Assembly (NCBI GenBank): GCA_965232515.1
Contig: CBDDPY010000002.1
Location: 2,848,001 to 2,912,000, forward strand
Source of the DNA: Alphaproteobacteria bacterium
GTDB lineage: Bacteria > Pseudomonadota > Alphaproteobacteria > GCA-2731375
DNA: 64,000 nt
Direction: 5' to 3'
The notes beneath the pieces are model-generated. The model searched no databases, had not been told where the DNA came from, and saw nothing but the letters and a program-made list of their open reading frames with translations. Within the stretch, counting starts at the first letter, position 1. Each line of letters starts with the position of its first letter. Positions 4,572 to 9,983 of the stretch are shown here, one piece after another. The translations under genes were made by a program, and so were the position numbers.

Positions 4572-5513
4572 GTGGTCAAATACCTGGCGCAACGTTTGTT
4601 GCTGATGGGCATCACGGTCACCGGCATGGTGACCGTGGTGTTCTTTCTGCTGCGGCTGATCCCCGGCGACCCGGCGGAATACATGCTGGGCGACTACGCG
4701 ACCGAGGAAAGCCTGGCCGCGCTTCGGGCCGAACTCGGTCTCGACCTGGCGATCCACGAGCAATACCTGCGCTTCATGGGCCGGGCCTTCAGCGGCGATC
4801 TCGGCACCTCGGTCGTGACCGGCCAACCGGCGCTGGACGAGGTGCTGGCGAGCCTGCCCTGGTCGGCTGCGCTGGCGCTGGCCGGCATCATCATCGCGGT
4901 GGTGATCGGCGTCCCGCTCGGGGTCATATCGGCGGTGCGGCAGGGCAGCTGGACCGATCTCGGCGTCATGCTGATCGCGCTCGCCGGTATTTCCTTTCCG
5001 GTGTTCTGGGTCGGCCTTGTCGGGATTTTGATCTTCGCGCACGAGCTGCCGCTGTTCCCGGCACTCGGCGCCAGCTCGTCCGACAACGTGCTGACGCAGC
5101 TGCACCATCTGGCGCTGCCGGCGCTGGTGCTCGGCACGTCGGTCGCGGCCTATATCGCGCGGCTGACGCGCTCGGCCATGTTGGAGGTGCTGGGACAGGA
5201 ATATGTCCGCGTCGCCCGGGCCATGGGCGTGCGCGAGACCCGCGTGGTCTACCGCCTGGCGCTGCGCAACGCGCTGATCCCGGTGCTGTCGGTCATCGGC
5301 GTGACCTTCGCCTGGTCGCTCGGCAGCGCAATCCTGGTCGAGGCCGTGTTCAGCCGGCCCGGCCTCGGCTCGATGATCCTGAAGGCGATCTTCGCGCGCG
5401 ACTATCAGCTCGTACAGGCCGGCGTGATGGTGCTGTCGCTCGCGGTCGTCCTGATCAACACCAGTCTCGACATTGTCTACGGCATCGTCGATCCGCGGGT
5501 GCGCACGGGATGA
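4572..5513 (+). CDS. ABC transporter permease (DppB/OppB type)
   Basis: LIPGDPA, GDLGTS, EAA loop EYVRVARAMG, RDYQLVQ, DPRVR. Confidence 0.95.
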   Translation: MVKYLAQRLLLMGITVTGMVTVVFFLLRLIPGDPAEYMLGDYATEESLAALRAELGLDLAIHEQYLRFMGRAFSGDLGTSVVTGQPALDEVLASLPWSAALALAGIIIAVVIGVPLGVISAVRQGSWTDLGVMLIALAGISFPVFWVGLVGILIFAHELPLFPALGASSSDNVLTQLHHLALPALVLGTSVAAYIARLTRSAMLEVLGQEYVRVARAMGVRETRVVYRLALRNALIPVLSVIGVTFAWSLGSAILVEAVFSRPGLGSMILKAIFARDYQLVQAGVMVLSLAVVLINTSLDIVYGIVDPRVRTG

Positions 5514-6400
5514 CCGACGCTTCGACGACGGCGCCGGCGCGCACGGCCTTTGGCGGCATCCGGTCCCGCTATCTGCGTCATCCGGGATTCATGACCGGCC
5601 TGATCGTTATCGCGGCCATATCCATCGTCGCCATCGGCGCGCCCGTCTTCGCGCCCTACTCGCCGCTGGAAACCGACATGCTGAAGACGTTGGCGCCGCC
5701 GTCATGGGAGCATCCGCTGGGCACCGACCAGTTCGGCCGAGACGTGCTGTCGCGGCTGATCTGGGGGGCGCAGATCTCGCTTCAGGTCGCGGCCATGGTG
5801 GTGGTGATCTCGCTGACATTCGGGACGCTGATCGGCGCCGTCGCCGGGTATGCCGGCGGCTGGGTGGAGCGTGTCATCATGGTCGGCAACGACATCCTGC
5901 TGGCGTTTCCCGGCTTCCTGCTGGCGCTGGCGCTGGTGGCGGTGCGGGGGTCGTCGCTCGAATCCGTGATCCTGGCCGTCTCGATCGCCTATACGCCGCG
6001 GGTCGCGGCGGTGATGCGCTCGGTCGTGCTGACGATCAAGCCGCGCCCCTATATCGAGGCCAGCCAGGCCATCGGCATGACGGCGAGCCGCGTGCTGTTC
6101 GTACATGTCATCCCGAACGCCCTGCCGCCCGTCATCGTCGTCGCTACGGTCAGCGCCGCGACCGCGATCCTGGCGGAGGCCGGCCTCAGTTATCTCGGCC
6201 TCGGCGTGCAGCCGCCGGCCGCGACCTGGGGCAACGTGATCTCGGACGGGCAGAGCTACATCATCTCCAATCCCTGGATCTCGATCTCCGCCGGCGCCTG
6301 CATCGCCATCGTCGTGATCGCGCTGAACCTGCTGGGCGACGGCCTGCGCGACACGCTGGACCCGCAGATGCGCCGCTATGCCGGCTCGCGGATGTTGTAG
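5510..6400 (+). CDS. ABC transporter permease (DppC/OppC type)
   Basis: HPLGTDQFGRDVLSRLIWG, YIEASQAIG, LSYLGLGVQPP, NLLGDGLRDTLDP; ATGA overlap with upstream gene. Confidence 0.95.
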   Translation: MTDASTTAPARTAFGGIRSRYLRHPGFMTGLIVIAAISIVAIGAPVFAPYSPLETDMLKTLAPPSWEHPLGTDQFGRDVLSRLIWGAQISLQVAAMVVVISLTFGTLIGAVAGYAGGWVERVIMVGNDILLAFPGFLLALALVAVRGSSLESVILAVSIAYTPRVAAVMRSVVLTIKPRPYIEASQAIGMTASRVLFVHVIPNALPPVIVVATVSAATAILAEAGLSYLGLGVQPPAATWGNVISDGQSYIISNPWISISAGACIAIVVIALNLLGDGLRDTLDPQMRRYAGSRML

Positions 6401-6404
6401 CGCC

Positions 6405-7424
6405 ATGCCGGACGGAACCCCGCAAGCGACATACGCGCTAGACGTGCGGAACTTGCGCACGGCCTTCCCGACCGACACCGGCACCATTGCCGTGGTCGAC
6501 GACGTCTCGCTGGCGATCCGGCCGCGCGAGACCCTGGCCGTCGTGGGCGAGTCCGGCTCCGGCAAGACCATGACTTTCCTGTCTGTGCTGGGCCTGACGC
6601 CGCCGCCCGGCAAGGTGGTCGGCGGCGAGGTCCTGTTCGGCGGCCGGGACCTGACCAAGCTGTCGACGGAAGAACTTCGCGACATCCGCGGCGCCGGCAT
6701 CGCCATGGTGTTCCAGGACCCGCTGACGGCGCTGAACCCGGTCTTCACCATCGGCGCGCAGATCGTCGAGGTGATCCGCGCGCACCGGCCGGTCGGCCTT
6801 CGGGAAGCGCGAGAGCAGGCCGTCGAGCTGCTGGCCCGCGTGCATATTCCCGACCCCGCCCGCCTTATCGACAACTATCCGCATCAACTGTCTGGCGGCA
6901 TGCGGCAGCGCACGCTGATCGCCATGGCGATCGCGCTCGAGCCGGCGCTGCTGATCGCGGACGAACCGACGACGGCGCTCGACGTGACGGTGCAGGCGCA
7001 GATCCTGGAACTGCTGGCCGAGCTGCGGGAGTCCTATGACATGGGCATGGTGCTGATCACGCACGACCTGGGCCTGGTGGCGAAATACGCCGACCGCATG
7101 GCGGTGATGTATGCCGGCCGCGTGGTCGAGTATTGCGAGATCCACGAGGGCTTCGCGGCGGCGCGGCACCCCTACACCCATTCGCTGCTGCGCAGCATTC
7201 CCCGGCTCGACGCGCCCGCCGGCGAGGATCTGGCGGCGATTGAAGGCCAGCCGCCGAACCTGGAGACGTTGCCGCCGGGCTGCGCCTTCCGGCCACGCTG
7301 CTTCCTCGGATCGGAACGCACGGATTGCGCGGCCGAACGGCCGGCGTTGATGCCGACCGACCGCGACGCGCATTTGAGCGCCTGCCTGCATTGGCGCGCG
7401 CTTTCGGCCGGCGGGAGTCAGTGA
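6405..7424 (+). CDS. ABC transporter ATP-binding protein (DppD/OppD type)
   Basis: Walker [37 protein letters not shown]. Start re-assigned to ATG 6405 after upstream stop. Confidence 0.93.
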
Positions 7425-8491
7425 CGGCCATGGCGGAACCAATGACCGGCGACGCGGACGTGCTGCTGCAGATGGCGCGCGTCAGCAAGACGTTCAGCAA
7501 GTCGGAAGGCCTGTTCAGCCGCCGACGCCACACGGTCAAGGCGGTCGACGACGTGACGTTCACGCTTTACCGGGGCGAGACCCTGGGCCTGGTCGGCGAG
7601 ACCGGCAGCGGCAAGAGCACGCTCGGGCGCCTGGCGCTGCGACTGCTCGCGCCCGACGGCGGCCGCATCGAATTCGACGGCACCGACACCACGGACCTGT
7701 CGCCGCGCCAAGTCCGCCCGCTCAGGCGCAGGGCGCAGATGGTGTTCCAGGACCCCTACGGCTCGCTCGATCCCCGCAAGAAGGTGTCGTCGATCCTGGC
7801 CGAGCCGCTGGTCGTGCATGGCCTCTGGGACAAGGACGGCCAGCAGCGGCTGCTGGACATCCTGGACAAGGTCGGCCTGCAACCGGCGCACCTCGATCGC
7901 TATCCGCACGAGTTCTCGGGCGGGCAGCGCCAGCGCATCGGCATCGCCCGCGCCATGGTGCTGAACCCGGATCTGTTGGTGCTGGACGAGCCGGTCTCGG
8001 CGCTTGATGTCTCGATCCAGGCGCAGATCATCAACCTGCTGCGCGCGCTGCAGCGGCAGGCAGGACTGACCTTCCTGTTCATCGCCCACGATCTGGCCGT
8101 TGTGCGGCATGTCAGCGATCGGGTCGCGGTGATGTATCTCGGCCGGATTGTCGAGATCGGTCCGCGCGACGATCTCTACCGCGCGCCGCGCCACCCTTAT
8201 ACCGTCTCGCTGTTGTCGGCCGTACCGGTGCCGGACCCGGATCTCGAGCGCCAGCGAACCCGCGTGCTGCTGCATGGCGAGATCGGCTCGGCCACGGACA
8301 TGCCCGGCGGCTGCCGCTTCCATCCGCGCTGCTACAAGGCCCGGCTGCTGGCCGACCGGCCCGATGTCGAGACGGTCGCCGCCAAGGACGGTACCCGGCT
8401 GCCGCGCGCCTGCGTCGAGCGGGCGCCCGAGCTTGCCGGCGACAACGGCCATCTGGCGGCATGCCATTTCCCGGAAGCCGCGAGCGATTAG
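7421..8491 (+). CDS. ABC transporter ATP-binding protein (DppF/OppF type)
   Basis: GETGSGKST, FSGGQRQRI, LDEPVSALD, HPYT, GCRFHPRC, ACHF. GTGA overlap at 7421; ATG 7430 is an alternative start. Confidence 0.93.
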   Translation: MTAMAEPMTGDADVLLQMARVSKTFSKSEGLFSRRRHTVKAVDDVTFTLYRGETLGLVGETGSGKSTLGRLALRLLAPDGGRIEFDGTDTTDLSPRQVRPLRRRAQMVFQDPYGSLDPRKKVSSILAEPLVVHGLWDKDGQQRLLDILDKVGLQPAHLDRYPHEFSGGQRQRIGIARAMVLNPDLLVLDEPVSALDVSIQAQIINLLRALQRQAGLTFLFIAHDLAVVRHVSDRVAVMYLGRIVEIGPRDDLYRAPRHPYTVSLLSAVPVPDPDLERQRTRVLLHGEIGSATDMPGGCRFHPRCYKARLLADRPDVETVAAKDGTRLPRACVERAPELAGDNGHLAACHFPEAASD

Positions 8492-8546
8492 GCACCCACA
8501 TCGGGCGCGCAGGTTGTATGATTTGGATAGTGGTCAGGAGAACGGA

Positions 8547-9308
8547 ATGAGCGACGCGATCAGGGTATTCTGGCAACCGCATTGAACCAGCTGTCTCCGG
8601 GTTAAGGATTACCTGTCGGTCCGTGGGATCGAATTCGAATCCGTAAACGTGCTGGAAGAGAGCGGTATGGCGGCGCTGCAGGCGCTCGGCGCGCGTAGCG
8701 TGCCCGTGGTGTCGAAGGGCGACAAGTTCGTCTTCGCGCAGGTCATCAAGGATGTGGTCGACTTCCTGGAGCTCGAGGACGACACCGCGCCCGAGCTGTC
8801 GCCGGACGCGCTGGCGGCACGCTATGACGGCATCCTGGAAACGGCGATCCGGTTGACGCGGCAGATGCCAGACGCGCGCCTCGAGGACGAGCTGCCGAAC
8901 CGGCCGCGATCCTGGCGGGTGCTGATGCACCATGTCTTCCAGATCCCGGTGGCGTTCCTCGACATGGAGGAAACGGGCGCGACGCTGACCTACGAAACCA
9001 TGGTGGCGCCGCCGCCGGACGACATGACCAGCAGCGCCGACATCGCCCGGTTCGGCGAGGCCGTGCGCGCCCGCTTCCAGGATTGGTGGGCGGACGCCAG
9101 GGGTGGCGACTTTTCGGGCGACGTGCCGACTTACTTCGGCGCCACGTCGCGGCACGAGATGCTGGAACGCACGGTCTGGCATTCGACCCAGCACGTGCGC
9201 CAGGTCGCCTCGCTGTTGCAGCAGGCGGGTGTCACGCCGGACCGGCCGCTGACGGCGGCCGATATCGAGAACTTGCCGCTGACCGAGGCGGTTTGGGACG
9301 AGACCTGA
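8547..9308 (+). CDS. Probable selenoprotein: glutaredoxin-like (UxxC) domain fused to DinB-like domain; in-frame TGA at 8583-8585
   Basis: RBS CAGGAG (8535-8540), ATG 8547, then MSDAIRVFWQPH-TGA-TSCLRVKDYLSVRGIEFESVNV in frame with the 8649-9308 ORF. Grx cis-Pro motif RSVPVV; DinB-like His motifs LMHH and WHSTQH. Confidence 0.8.
8606..8642 (+). promoter_or_regulatory. Candidate bacterial SECIS hairpin
   Basis: Upper stem TCGGTCC/GGATCGA (8616-8632, one G-U) with GTG apical loop; lower stem GGATT/AATCC. Loop G is 37 nt after the TGA. Paired by eye only. Confidence 0.45.
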
Positions 9309-9329
9309 TACGGACGAGGAAGGACGAAC

Positions 9330-9983
9330 ATGACGGACATCGACAGCCAGCAGAACTATTACGACAAGATCGGATTCAGCGAGCGCCTGGGCTTCGGCAA
9401 GCGGCCGGCCGTGCTGGTGATCGACATGAGCCGCGGCATTACCGAGCCCGGCAAGATGTATATCGACATGGACGAGCACATCCCGCGCATCCAGGCGATC
9501 AACGAGGCGGCGCGGCGGATCGGCGCGCCGGTGATCTTCACCACGGTCGCCTATCACAAGGATCTCGCCGACGCCGGCACCTTCGGCCAGAAGGTGCCGC
9601 TGGTGCAGAACCTGCTCTACGGCTCGACCGACGTCGAGATCGACCCGCGCCTGCCGGTCGAGGAATCGGACCACCTGCTGGTGAAGAAGTTCCCGAGCGC
9701 CTTCTACGGCACCAACCTGCAGTCGATGCTGACCGGCCTCGGCGTCGACACCACCATCATCGTCGGCAACTCGACCAGCGGCTGCGTGCGGGCGACGACC
9801 TGCGACGCCATCTCGGGCGGCTTCCGCCCTGTTGTCCCCAGCGACTGCGTCGCCGACCGCGCGCCGCTGTCGCACGAGGTGAACCTGTTCGACATGGACT
9901 CGAAATACGCCGACGTCATGCCGAGCGGCGAGGTGCTCGCCTATCTCGACGGCCTGGCTACGGACCGGGTCGCGGCCGAGTAG
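9330..9983 (+). CDS. Isochorismatase-family cysteine hydrolase (N-carbamoylsarcosine amidase/maleamate amidohydrolase-like)
   Basis: LGFGKRPAVLVIDM, KKFPSAFYGT, GNSTSGCVRAT, DCVADR: Asp-Lys-Cys triad. Confidence 0.9.
   Translation: MTDIDSQQNYYDKIGFSERLGFGKRPAVLVIDMSRGITEPGKMYIDMDEHIPRIQAINEAARRIGAPVIFTTVAYHKDLADAGTFGQKVPLVQNLLYGSTDVEIDPRLPVEESDHLLVKKFPSAFYGTNLQSMLTGLGVDTTIIVGNSTSGCVRATTCDAISGGFRPVVPSDCVADRAPLSHEVNLFDMDSKYADVMPSGEVLAYLDGLATDRVAAE

Follow-up and report, generated by a model that had tools for sequence, protein, structure and literature searches.

Results

A 64,000-nucleotide stretch of an Alphaproteobacteria genome (assembly GCA_965232515.1, contig CBDDPY010000002.1, forward-strand positions 2,848,001 to 2,912,000; the whole stretch is called the window here and is numbered from its first letter) carries at 8547 to 9308, on the forward strand, a gene that we predict to encode a selenoprotein in which a glutaredoxin (Grx) domain is fused to a DinB-fold domain. 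A Shine-Dalgarno-like AGGAGA, as read from the sequence, lies at 8536 to 8541 on the same strand, 5 nt ahead of ATG 8547, and purine-rich stretches also occupy the Shine-Dalgarno position in homologous loci. From the ATG the frame runs through MSDAIRVFWQPH (the ATG and eleven sense codons) to an in-frame TGA at 8583 to 8585 and then through TSCLRVKDYLSVRGIEF, which starts TSCLRV, to the TGA stop at 9306 to 9308. With codon 13 taken as the proposed selenocysteine (Sec, U), the 253 codons give a read-through product of 253 residues, in which Sec13 opens a U-T-S-C motif whose Cys16 is encoded at 8592 to 8594. A sequence-only reading of this DNA had described a strong ribosome-binding site, the start at 8547, the TGA and a 253-residue frame free of frameshifts, and direct reading bore it out; the motifs that it named (U13-T-S-C16, S51-V-P53, L126-M-H-H129, and W211-H-S-T-Q-H216) are all present.

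The standard list of open reading frames (ORFs) places the first start in this frame at GTG 8649, which yields 219 aa. Public annotation follows the same pattern. Protein databases hold 1776 relatives at an E value of ≤1e-5, and nearly all of the top 120 are 213 to 240 aa long, representing calls that restart after the TGA, the truncation by gene callers that the sequence-only reading had foreseen. These relatives are named “DinB family protein,” “glutaredoxin domain-containing protein,” or “hypothetical.”

The TGA is conserved at a fixed position. In a six-frame search of 40 related genomes, full-length matches with 44 to 90% identity were found in 24, each with an internal TGA; within the window's own family, 21 of 24 sampled genomes had the gene. 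We extracted 20 loci, including that of the window; every one of them has the TGA as codon 13, with the surrounding residues VFW[QR]P[HGA]-U-[TS]SC. The aligned start codon in these loci is ATG in 17 and GTG in 1, with an ATG 15 nt upstream in the other 2, and the start ATG and the VFWQP motif are kept down to 45% identity. On comparative grounds, an internal TGA in a UxxC frame that stays at codon 13 in each of these 20 loci and is spanned by the Pfam Glutaredoxin match is far beyond chance.

A class-level survey of an even sample of 301 genomes (family threshold, E value of ≤1e-20) detected the family in 20, of which 14 had the TGA form and 6 had TGC or TGT at codon 13. The 8 further class-level loci and the 20 from relatives make 28 TGA-bearing loci, and all 28 have the TGA as codon 13. 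Among named genome records, at least 562 species-level genomes encode the family. The carriers are mostly metagenome-assembled genomes (MAGs) of Alphaproteobacteria (Rhodospirillaceae, Hyphomicrobiaceae, and Acetobacteraceae); others are Beta- and Gammaproteobacteria, plus single bins that are labelled Planctomycetota or Acidimicrobiales. In the best 80 loci from these genomes (at least 562), the TGA stands in a UxxC context in 78 (76 in register and 2 with longer N-termini), and the remaining 2 have aberrant N-termini.

Homologs that have no TGA carry cysteine instead. An exhaustive profile search returned 2033 representative clusters at an E value of ≤0.001 and 261 at ≤1e-30. The best 150 representatives comprised 60 with CxxC, 1 with SxxS, and 89 that are without the N-terminal motif (truncated or fragmentary), so that Cys is found at position 13 in 60 of the 61 that have an N-terminus; Trp was never seen there in TGA-free homologs. 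Position 13 is thus a conserved TGA or Cys, the pattern expected by the sequence-only reading. One database protein, P0007 (252 aa, 75% identical to the window protein), is a full-length Cys form with the motif VFWQPHCTSC, and Sec and Cys forms alike are two-domain proteins. We masked the Sec/Cys column and built a tree of 53 Sec forms and 49 Cys forms, on which the Sec/Cys label needs at least 6 changes; the starred branches force at least 2. P0007 falls within a starred clade made up of 16 Sec forms. It follows that Sec and Cys replaced each other repeatedly, as is usual for selenoprotein families.

Substitution patterns across the 28 Sec-form genes indicate that both sides of the TGA are coding. 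Pairwise differences at codon positions 1, 2, and 3 numbered 682, 451, and 1306 in codons 5 to 12 and 2214, 1970, and 4063 in codons 14 to 37; the 36 nt ahead of the start codon showed no phase (1491, 1572, and 1558). By this measure, the codons ahead of the TGA change in the manner of coding sequence.

The genome encodes a Sec decoding system. We detected selA (575.7 bits), selB (429.2 bits), and selD (290.4 bits), which lie with tRNA-Sec within ~11 kb; the tRNA-Sec scored 71.6 bits and was assigned the anticodon tca by ARAGORN. The sequence-only reading had named selA, selB, selC, and selD as the genes to look for, and selA, selB, selD, and tRNA-Sec are all there. In the class sample, selA exceeded its cut-off in 39 of 301 genomes: it was found in 12 of the 14 with the TGA form of the family (the other two are genomes of 77% and 69% completeness) and in 24 of the 281 without the family. 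A few genomes place the gene close to selA. In 5 of the best 80 named loci (L074, L075, L079, L083, and L096), which belong to Hyphomicrobiaceae, Filomicrobium, and Magnetovibrio MAGs, the same strand carries a selA-cluster gene 94 to 403 nt downstream; the downstream gene of L074 (L074:3865-5280) is selA by Pfam SelA (528 bits), and the other four were assigned by homology cluster only. In genomes G082 and G134, the Grx-DinB gene and selA are 8 to 9 kb apart on one contig.

We also examined the Sec genes and other possible Sec clients of the window's genome. SelD forms the C-terminal half of a 773-aa ORF (G000:C2:5873594-5875800; L019:1387-3711, minus strand) whose N-terminal half is a pyridine-nucleotide-disulfide oxidoreductase domain, and we hence describe it as a fused SelD. 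Between the fused selD and tRNA-Sec is ~1.7 kb (L143:1406-3112, which is G000:C2:5875805-5877511) with long ORFs on both strands and no Pfam match; when it is read with TGA as U, one frame reaches 989 aa with three TGAs. The sel cluster contains no Pfam-recognizable Sec client. Five further candidate selenoprotein genes have TGA at classic Sec positions (G000:C2:4664903-4665109, 6733012-6733377, 1340287-1340727, 6784186-6784515, and 1291126-1291485; L144-L148), with the motifs CVQU (Rdx/SelW-like), TPGU (Prx), and WUPYC, WUGC, and HWUPYC (all three Prx-like), and there is a weak CMD match with a TGA at C2:6315276-6315404. A Sec-type FdhA (formate dehydrogenase [FDH]) was not found in the genome; all 19 FDH-like matches are free of internal stops.

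A candidate selenocysteine insertion sequence (SECIS) follows the TGA. The SECIS-like hairpin at 8616 to 8632 on the forward strand (UCGGUCC-GUG-GGAUCGA) pairs 8616 to 8622 with 8626 to 8632 in a 7-bp stem around a GUG loop (8623 to 8625); it lies 37 nt past the UGA and has a folding energy of -8.3 kcal/mol. In the alignment of the 20 extracted sequences, 85.6% of cells were paired, compared with 77.6% in shuffles, and 0 of 500 shuffles reached the observed pairing; controls with slid partners gave 20 to 59%. Compensatory changes occurred in 4 of 8 pairs; for the pair of columns 38 and 46, 10 sequences have C-G and 8 have U-A. The hairpin appears to be specific to Sec forms, which keep a mean of 6.93 of 8 pairs at -8.6 kcal/mol (n = 28), compared with 3.17 pairs and -2.9 kcal/mol in the same columns of Cys forms (n = 6), the kin in both sets not being independent. 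Arg26, whose CGU codon sits at the hairpin apex, is invariant in Sec forms and in P0007 and is replaced by Asn, Ser, or His in Cys forms of the class sample. An extended lower helix (alignment columns 24 to 28 with 56 to 60) was also considered; it was 54% paired and is unsupported.

According to the Fig. 2 legend of PMC13188914, the bacterial SECIS (bSECIS) model comprises a 3- to 9-nt loop on a 4- to 16-bp stem, 16 to 37 nt from the UGA, with a minimum free energy of -7.5 kcal/mol or lower; the loop has G at position 1 or 2, followed by G or U. The window hairpin falls within these bounds, with its spacing at the limit. A CCGUG apex after the TGA recurs in 4 of the 6 TGA genes of this genome (expected 0.06 per gene; binomial P of 1.9e-4), starting at +39 in the window gene and at +23 or +24 in the three others. 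Judged by its letters, the apex agrees with the organism's other candidate SECIS elements but is ~15 nt farther from the UGA.

One clade of the family (L029-L031 and L136) departs from this arrangement, with 5 of 8 pairs at the usual hairpin site. In 60-nt folds (L029:2158-2217, minus strand; L030:1537-1596; L031:1537-1596; and L136:3037-3096), the lowest-energy structure of L029, L031, and L136 includes a hairpin of 8 bp whose GUU loop falls at +27 from the UGA; the sequence of L030 is identical at this alternative site, but its lowest-energy fold pairs differently. These predicted folds suggest that the SECIS has been relocated in the clade.

The predicted protein has two domains and a tail, all read here from the forward strand. 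Residues 1 to 75 (8547 to 8771) form a glutaredoxin-like thioredoxin-fold domain, identified by Pfam PF00462, a PDB profile, and VIA, with an invariant Pro53 (8703 to 8705). The Pfam Glutaredoxin match covers residues 6 to 62, across the TGA (E value of 3.7e-9; 37.1 bits versus a cut-off of 22.9). The closest solved relatives by profile are 7c10 (E value of 1.7e-11) and NrdH 1h75, and VIA gave Z scores of 12.3 to 3zij and 11.5 to 7c10; the N-terminal domain resembles small dithiol redoxins. No NCBIfam model matched at its cut-off; scores were 36.3 versus 88.55 for YruB TIGR02196, 33.2 versus 85.75 for NrdH TIGR02194, and 23.1 versus 66 for Uxx-star NF041212.

An AlphaFold2 model built from a 22-sequence alignment had a predicted local distance difference test (pLDDT) score of 90.9 and a predicted template modeling (pTM) score of 0.86. 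It shows a Grx fold at residues 5 to 74 (pLDDT of 82 to 92), a linker, and a helical bundle at 86 to 226, with U13-T-S-C16 ahead of helix 14 to 25 and P53 ahead of strand 54 to 57. The bundle (8802 to 9224) is a DinB/YfiT-fold four-helix bundle by Foldseek and VIA. Its best match, 6iz2, was returned by Foldseek with a probability of 1.00 and a TM score of 0.83 normalized to the target. The VIA Z scores were 15.6 for 6iz2, 15.1 for 3di5, 13.1 for mycothiol-dependent maleylpyruvate isomerase (MDMPI), 12.6 for YfiT, 11.8 for Mycobacterium tuberculosis mycothiol S-transferase (MST), 9.4 for BstA, and 10 to 11 for EgtB, SenA, and OvsA; twelve DinB-type entries scored 12 or higher. The DinB-like C-terminal domain claimed by the sequence-only reading is thus upheld by the Z score of 15.6 and the TM score of 0.83 to 6iz2. 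Behind the bundle is a C-terminal tail (9225 to 9305) with the invariant motif L-P-L-x4-W-D at residues 243 to 251 (L243, P244, L245, W250, and D251).

Invariant residues in the 22 sequences include K20, R26, P53, H129, E207, R208, W211, H212, Q215, H216, R218, and Q219. His129 (8931 to 8933), His212 (9180 to 9182), and His216 (9192 to 9194) show the H...HxxxH spacing that we take to be that of the YfiT metal ligands. From invariance and spacing, we infer that the three are equivalent to the known DinB metal ligands, and they probably bind a divalent metal. An anionic ligand, for example glutathione, would fit with the invariant arginines R119, R121, R124, R208, and R218. One database singleton, P0165 (721 aa), has the MmgE/PrpD N- and C-domains ahead of a Grx-DinB module and could be either a real fusion or two merged calls.

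A Dpp/Opp-type ABC transporter (two permeases and two ATPases; window 4572 to 8491) ends 55 nt upstream of the gene, and an isochorismatase-family gene (9330 to 9983) begins 21 nt downstream. The transporter, the Grx-DinB gene, and the isochorismatase-family gene may form one operon. This arrangement is kept only within the same genus; neighbors in other clades include an old yellow enzyme-type flavin reductase, a luciferase-like monooxygenase, a short-chain dehydrogenase/reductase, P450, HpaB, a glutathione S-transferase (GST), an amidase, a thiolase, and a CoA-transferase. The neighborhoods share at most a loose redox or catabolic theme.

The likely source sequencing run is identical to the window. 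The sequence-only reading had raised reads over position 8583 as a check on the TGA, and contigs of further runs keep it: in contigs from two RNA-seq libraries of another study, a ~98% identical copy spans TGA 8583 to 8585 unchanged. These RNA-library contigs reproduce the TGA; transcription is not thereby proven. Matches to window positions 8300 to 9500 came from runs X4, X5, and X6-X13: ~98% identical copies in RNA-seq libraries filed under another organism label, and small shares in runs labelled coral and marine metagenomes, the small shares being no evidence of habitat.

Discussion

We conclude that the gene at 8547 to 9308 is very probably a functional selenoprotein gene encoding a Sec-decoded Grx-DinB fusion protein, and from the comparative sequence evidence we put the probability of this prediction at roughly 0.88. 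The sequence-only reading had proposed a Sec-dependent redox or thiol-transferase fusion; the Sec-decoded Grx-DinB fusion is supported, with the qualification that UxxC thioredoxin-fold selenoproteins are already well known.

A number of observations weigh against this conclusion or parts of it. The gene selA also occurs in 3 of the 6 Cys-form genomes, so the association between Sec forms and selA is one-directional. The 37-nt spacing of the hairpin is the upper limit of the published model and is ~15 nt longer than in the three other TGA genes. A single-sequence fold of 8583 to 8650 was no better than shuffles (z of 0.36), nor were 60-nt folds of six family members, and of the hairpin pairs RNAalifold alone on the 20 sequences retained only the lower 4. 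The hairpin is embedded in conserved coding sequence, where some covariation could be protein driven, and the relatedness of the sequences inflates the shuffle statistics. As for the C-terminal domain, the window protein scores below the Pfam cut-offs for DinB_2 (PF12867; 20.6 versus 24.8) and DinB (PF05163; 19.2 versus 23); the family members P0123 (28.0) and P0240 (27.2) exceed the DinB_2 cut-off. A profile of the domain searched against PDB sequences found no solved DinB protein and returned noise only (ribosomal L21 and Tdp2; E values of 0.16 to 1.5), which leaves the equivalence of its three histidines to known metal ligands tentative. No conserved operon partner in the neighborhoods of the window or the other clades points to a substrate. 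Lastly, run X3, the only other DNA sample compared, is without coverage of 8551 to 8602 and says nothing about the TGA.

We propose that translation would begin at ATG 8547 and that the hairpin at 8616 to 8632, through its GUG loop, would recruit SelB with Sec-tRNA(Sec) at UGA 8583 to 8585, so that selenocysteine would be inserted as residue 13 of the two-domain, 253-residue product. Sec13-Thr-Ser-Cys16 would then form a redox center at the start of helix 1 of the Grx-like domain. At its metal, the DinB pocket might hold a substrate or else a low-molecular-weight thiol, for example glutathione. As the nucleophile, the Sec13 selenolate would give an Se-S (or Se-substrate) intermediate that Cys16 could resolve to a selenenylsulfide, and a cellular thiol system (glutathione or thioredoxin) would re-reduce the center. 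The metal site, like the catalytic cycle and the class of substrate, is our inference. By analogy, such metal-assisted thiol/selenol chemistry, with Sec13 as the nucleophile and Cys16 resolving, would make the protein a GST-like or Grx2-like thiol reductase or transferase with the DinB bundle as its helical domain, a suggestion that we offer tentatively and think may well prove wrong.

The alternative that fares best accepts Sec and questions the cooperation of the domains: the Grx domain might be a general disulfide reductase tethered to a DinB domain whose function is unrelated, or Sec13 might be a fourth metal ligand or a redox switch and not the catalytic nucleophile. Glutaredoxin fusions to many partners are described in the available text of PMC2679010, and DinB-fold domains serve enzymes as diverse as MDMPI, EgtB, and SenA. 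However, the fusion is fixed across the family, with its 2033 cluster representatives at an E value of ≤0.001, and is shared by Sec and Cys forms, and the pTM of the model suggests a defined packing between the domains. We regard independent domains as rather unlikely, while still a serious contender.

It is far less probable that the UGA is read as an amino acid other than Sec, such as Trp or Cys, by near-cognate decoding or under an altered genetic code. Read-through alone does not identify the inserted amino acid. Yet the gene itself ends on TGA, and many homologs do too, so TGA is a stop in this organism. Moreover, the aligned residue in TGA-free homologs is Cys and never Trp, and the Sec-specific hairpin is present and co-occurs with selA.

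We find it highly improbable that the TGA is a true stop, with a product of 213 to 219 aa starting at GTG 8649 or ATG 8667 and the 12 upstream codons serving as a leader or as noncoding sequence. The standard ORF call (8649 to 9308) and the lengths of nearly all of the top 120 database entries are what this would predict. In such a product, however, the glutaredoxin fold would be left without its strand 1, active-site motif, and helix 1. Third-position bias is present in both codons 5 to 12 and codons 14 to 37, the ATG and VFWQP motif are conserved to 45% identity, and the Cys forms run uninterrupted over the full length of the protein.

An assembly or sequencing error, or a recent nonsense mutation in a pseudogene, has nothing specific in its favor apart from the gap in run X3 and is already refuted by the comparative data, given the same TGA in 28 independent genomes, in 78 of the best 80 named MAG loci, and in contigs of two further runs, in a gene that is otherwise intact and conserved.

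If the Grx-DinB protein is Sec decoded, it may possibly be the first selenoenzyme built on the DinB superfamily, with a thioredoxin fold and a DinB bundle converging on a GST-like architecture and a selenolate acting on a substrate or thiol at a His3-metal site, and many Alphaproteobacteria that are without a Sec-type formate dehydrogenase may have it as a principal client of their Sec machinery. We consider this combined proposal speculative and somewhat doubtful. If true, a principal Sec client would account for the gene's place immediately ahead of selA in some genomes and for the evolution of at least two SECIS positions in the family, with the loop at +41 or, in the L029-L031/L136 clade, at +27.

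The family is widespread and consistently misannotated, with truncated calls in hundreds of bacterial species. No NCBIfam model claims the protein, and selenoproteome censuses and annotation pipelines probably miss the family. DinB-fold proteins are, to our knowledge, for the most part without an assigned physiological role. A fused Sec-activated redox center would offer an experimental handle on them, through comparison of a U13C variant with the wild type and through natural Sec/Cys pairs. The Sec-specific hairpin, the natural Cys forms, and the clade with the relocated hairpin could likewise serve as a natural data set for SECIS rules at the spacing limit.

Among known systems, the N-terminal half is most like the Sec-containing Grx and “Grx-like” UxxC selenoproteins, with which it shares the thioredoxin fold, a Sec that opens UxxC at helix 1, Cys homologs, and a SECIS directly downstream. 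Such proteins have long been known (PMC1088965, PMC2398784, PMC9312934, and PMC13188914). Unlike those, which are catalogued by the Grx domain alone, the Grx domain of the window family is always fused to a DinB-fold domain of ~170 residues. The word DinB is absent from the available texts of the same four papers, figures and supplements aside, and earlier “Grx” counts could include the Grx-DinB family without noting its second domain. In the literature we found nothing relevant that links selenoproteins or selenocysteine with DinB, and nothing on Grx-DinB fusions; the available text of a paper on glutaredoxin domain combinations (PMC2679010) likewise has no occurrence of DinB. The ESM Atlas contains Grx plus DinB_2 clusters, under automatic names only.

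According to the available text of PMC10950700, characterized DinB/YfiT proteins are metal-dependent thiol S-transferases with a His-lined metal site of three conserved histidines. The C-terminal domain is like the STL thiol S-transferases BstA/YfiT (bacillithiol) and MST (mycothiol) in its four-helix-bundle fold (VIA Z scores of 12.6 to 1rxq, 11.8 to 8f5v, and 9.4 to 5wk0) and in the 1+2 pattern of its conserved histidines, which is consistent with a metal site. It differs from them in being without sequence-level similarity to the solved members, in occurring in glutathione-using Proteobacteria, and in having a redox-active Sec/Cys domain of its own. The best structural match to the C-terminal domain, the DinB/YfiT protein DR0053 of Deinococcus radiodurans (6iz2), superimposes with a root mean square deviation (rmsd) of 2.3 A over 144 residues, but it is 17% identical, has a single domain, contains no Sec, and is filed under an entry title that gives no function.

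The overall layout, an N-terminal thioredoxin-fold catalytic domain followed by a helical C-terminal substrate domain, recalls Cys-type GSTs and Grx2-like proteins. Whole-protein matches to GSTs reached Z scores of 8 to 10 with poor alignments (rmsd of 13 to 16 A by Foldseek and 4.8 to 7.9 A by VIA). Unlike in GSTs, the C-terminal domain has DinB rather than GST_C topology, and no GST Pfam family matches, so the GST/Grx2 resemblance appears to be one of analogy and not of membership. In MDMPI (2nsg), EgtB, SenA, and OvsA, a DinB domain that acts as a module for binding metal or thiol is likewise fused to a second catalytic domain (Z scores of 10 to 13), but the partner there is not a glutaredoxin and none of them has Sec. 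What is new here is the domain architecture and the family, not the UxxC principle.

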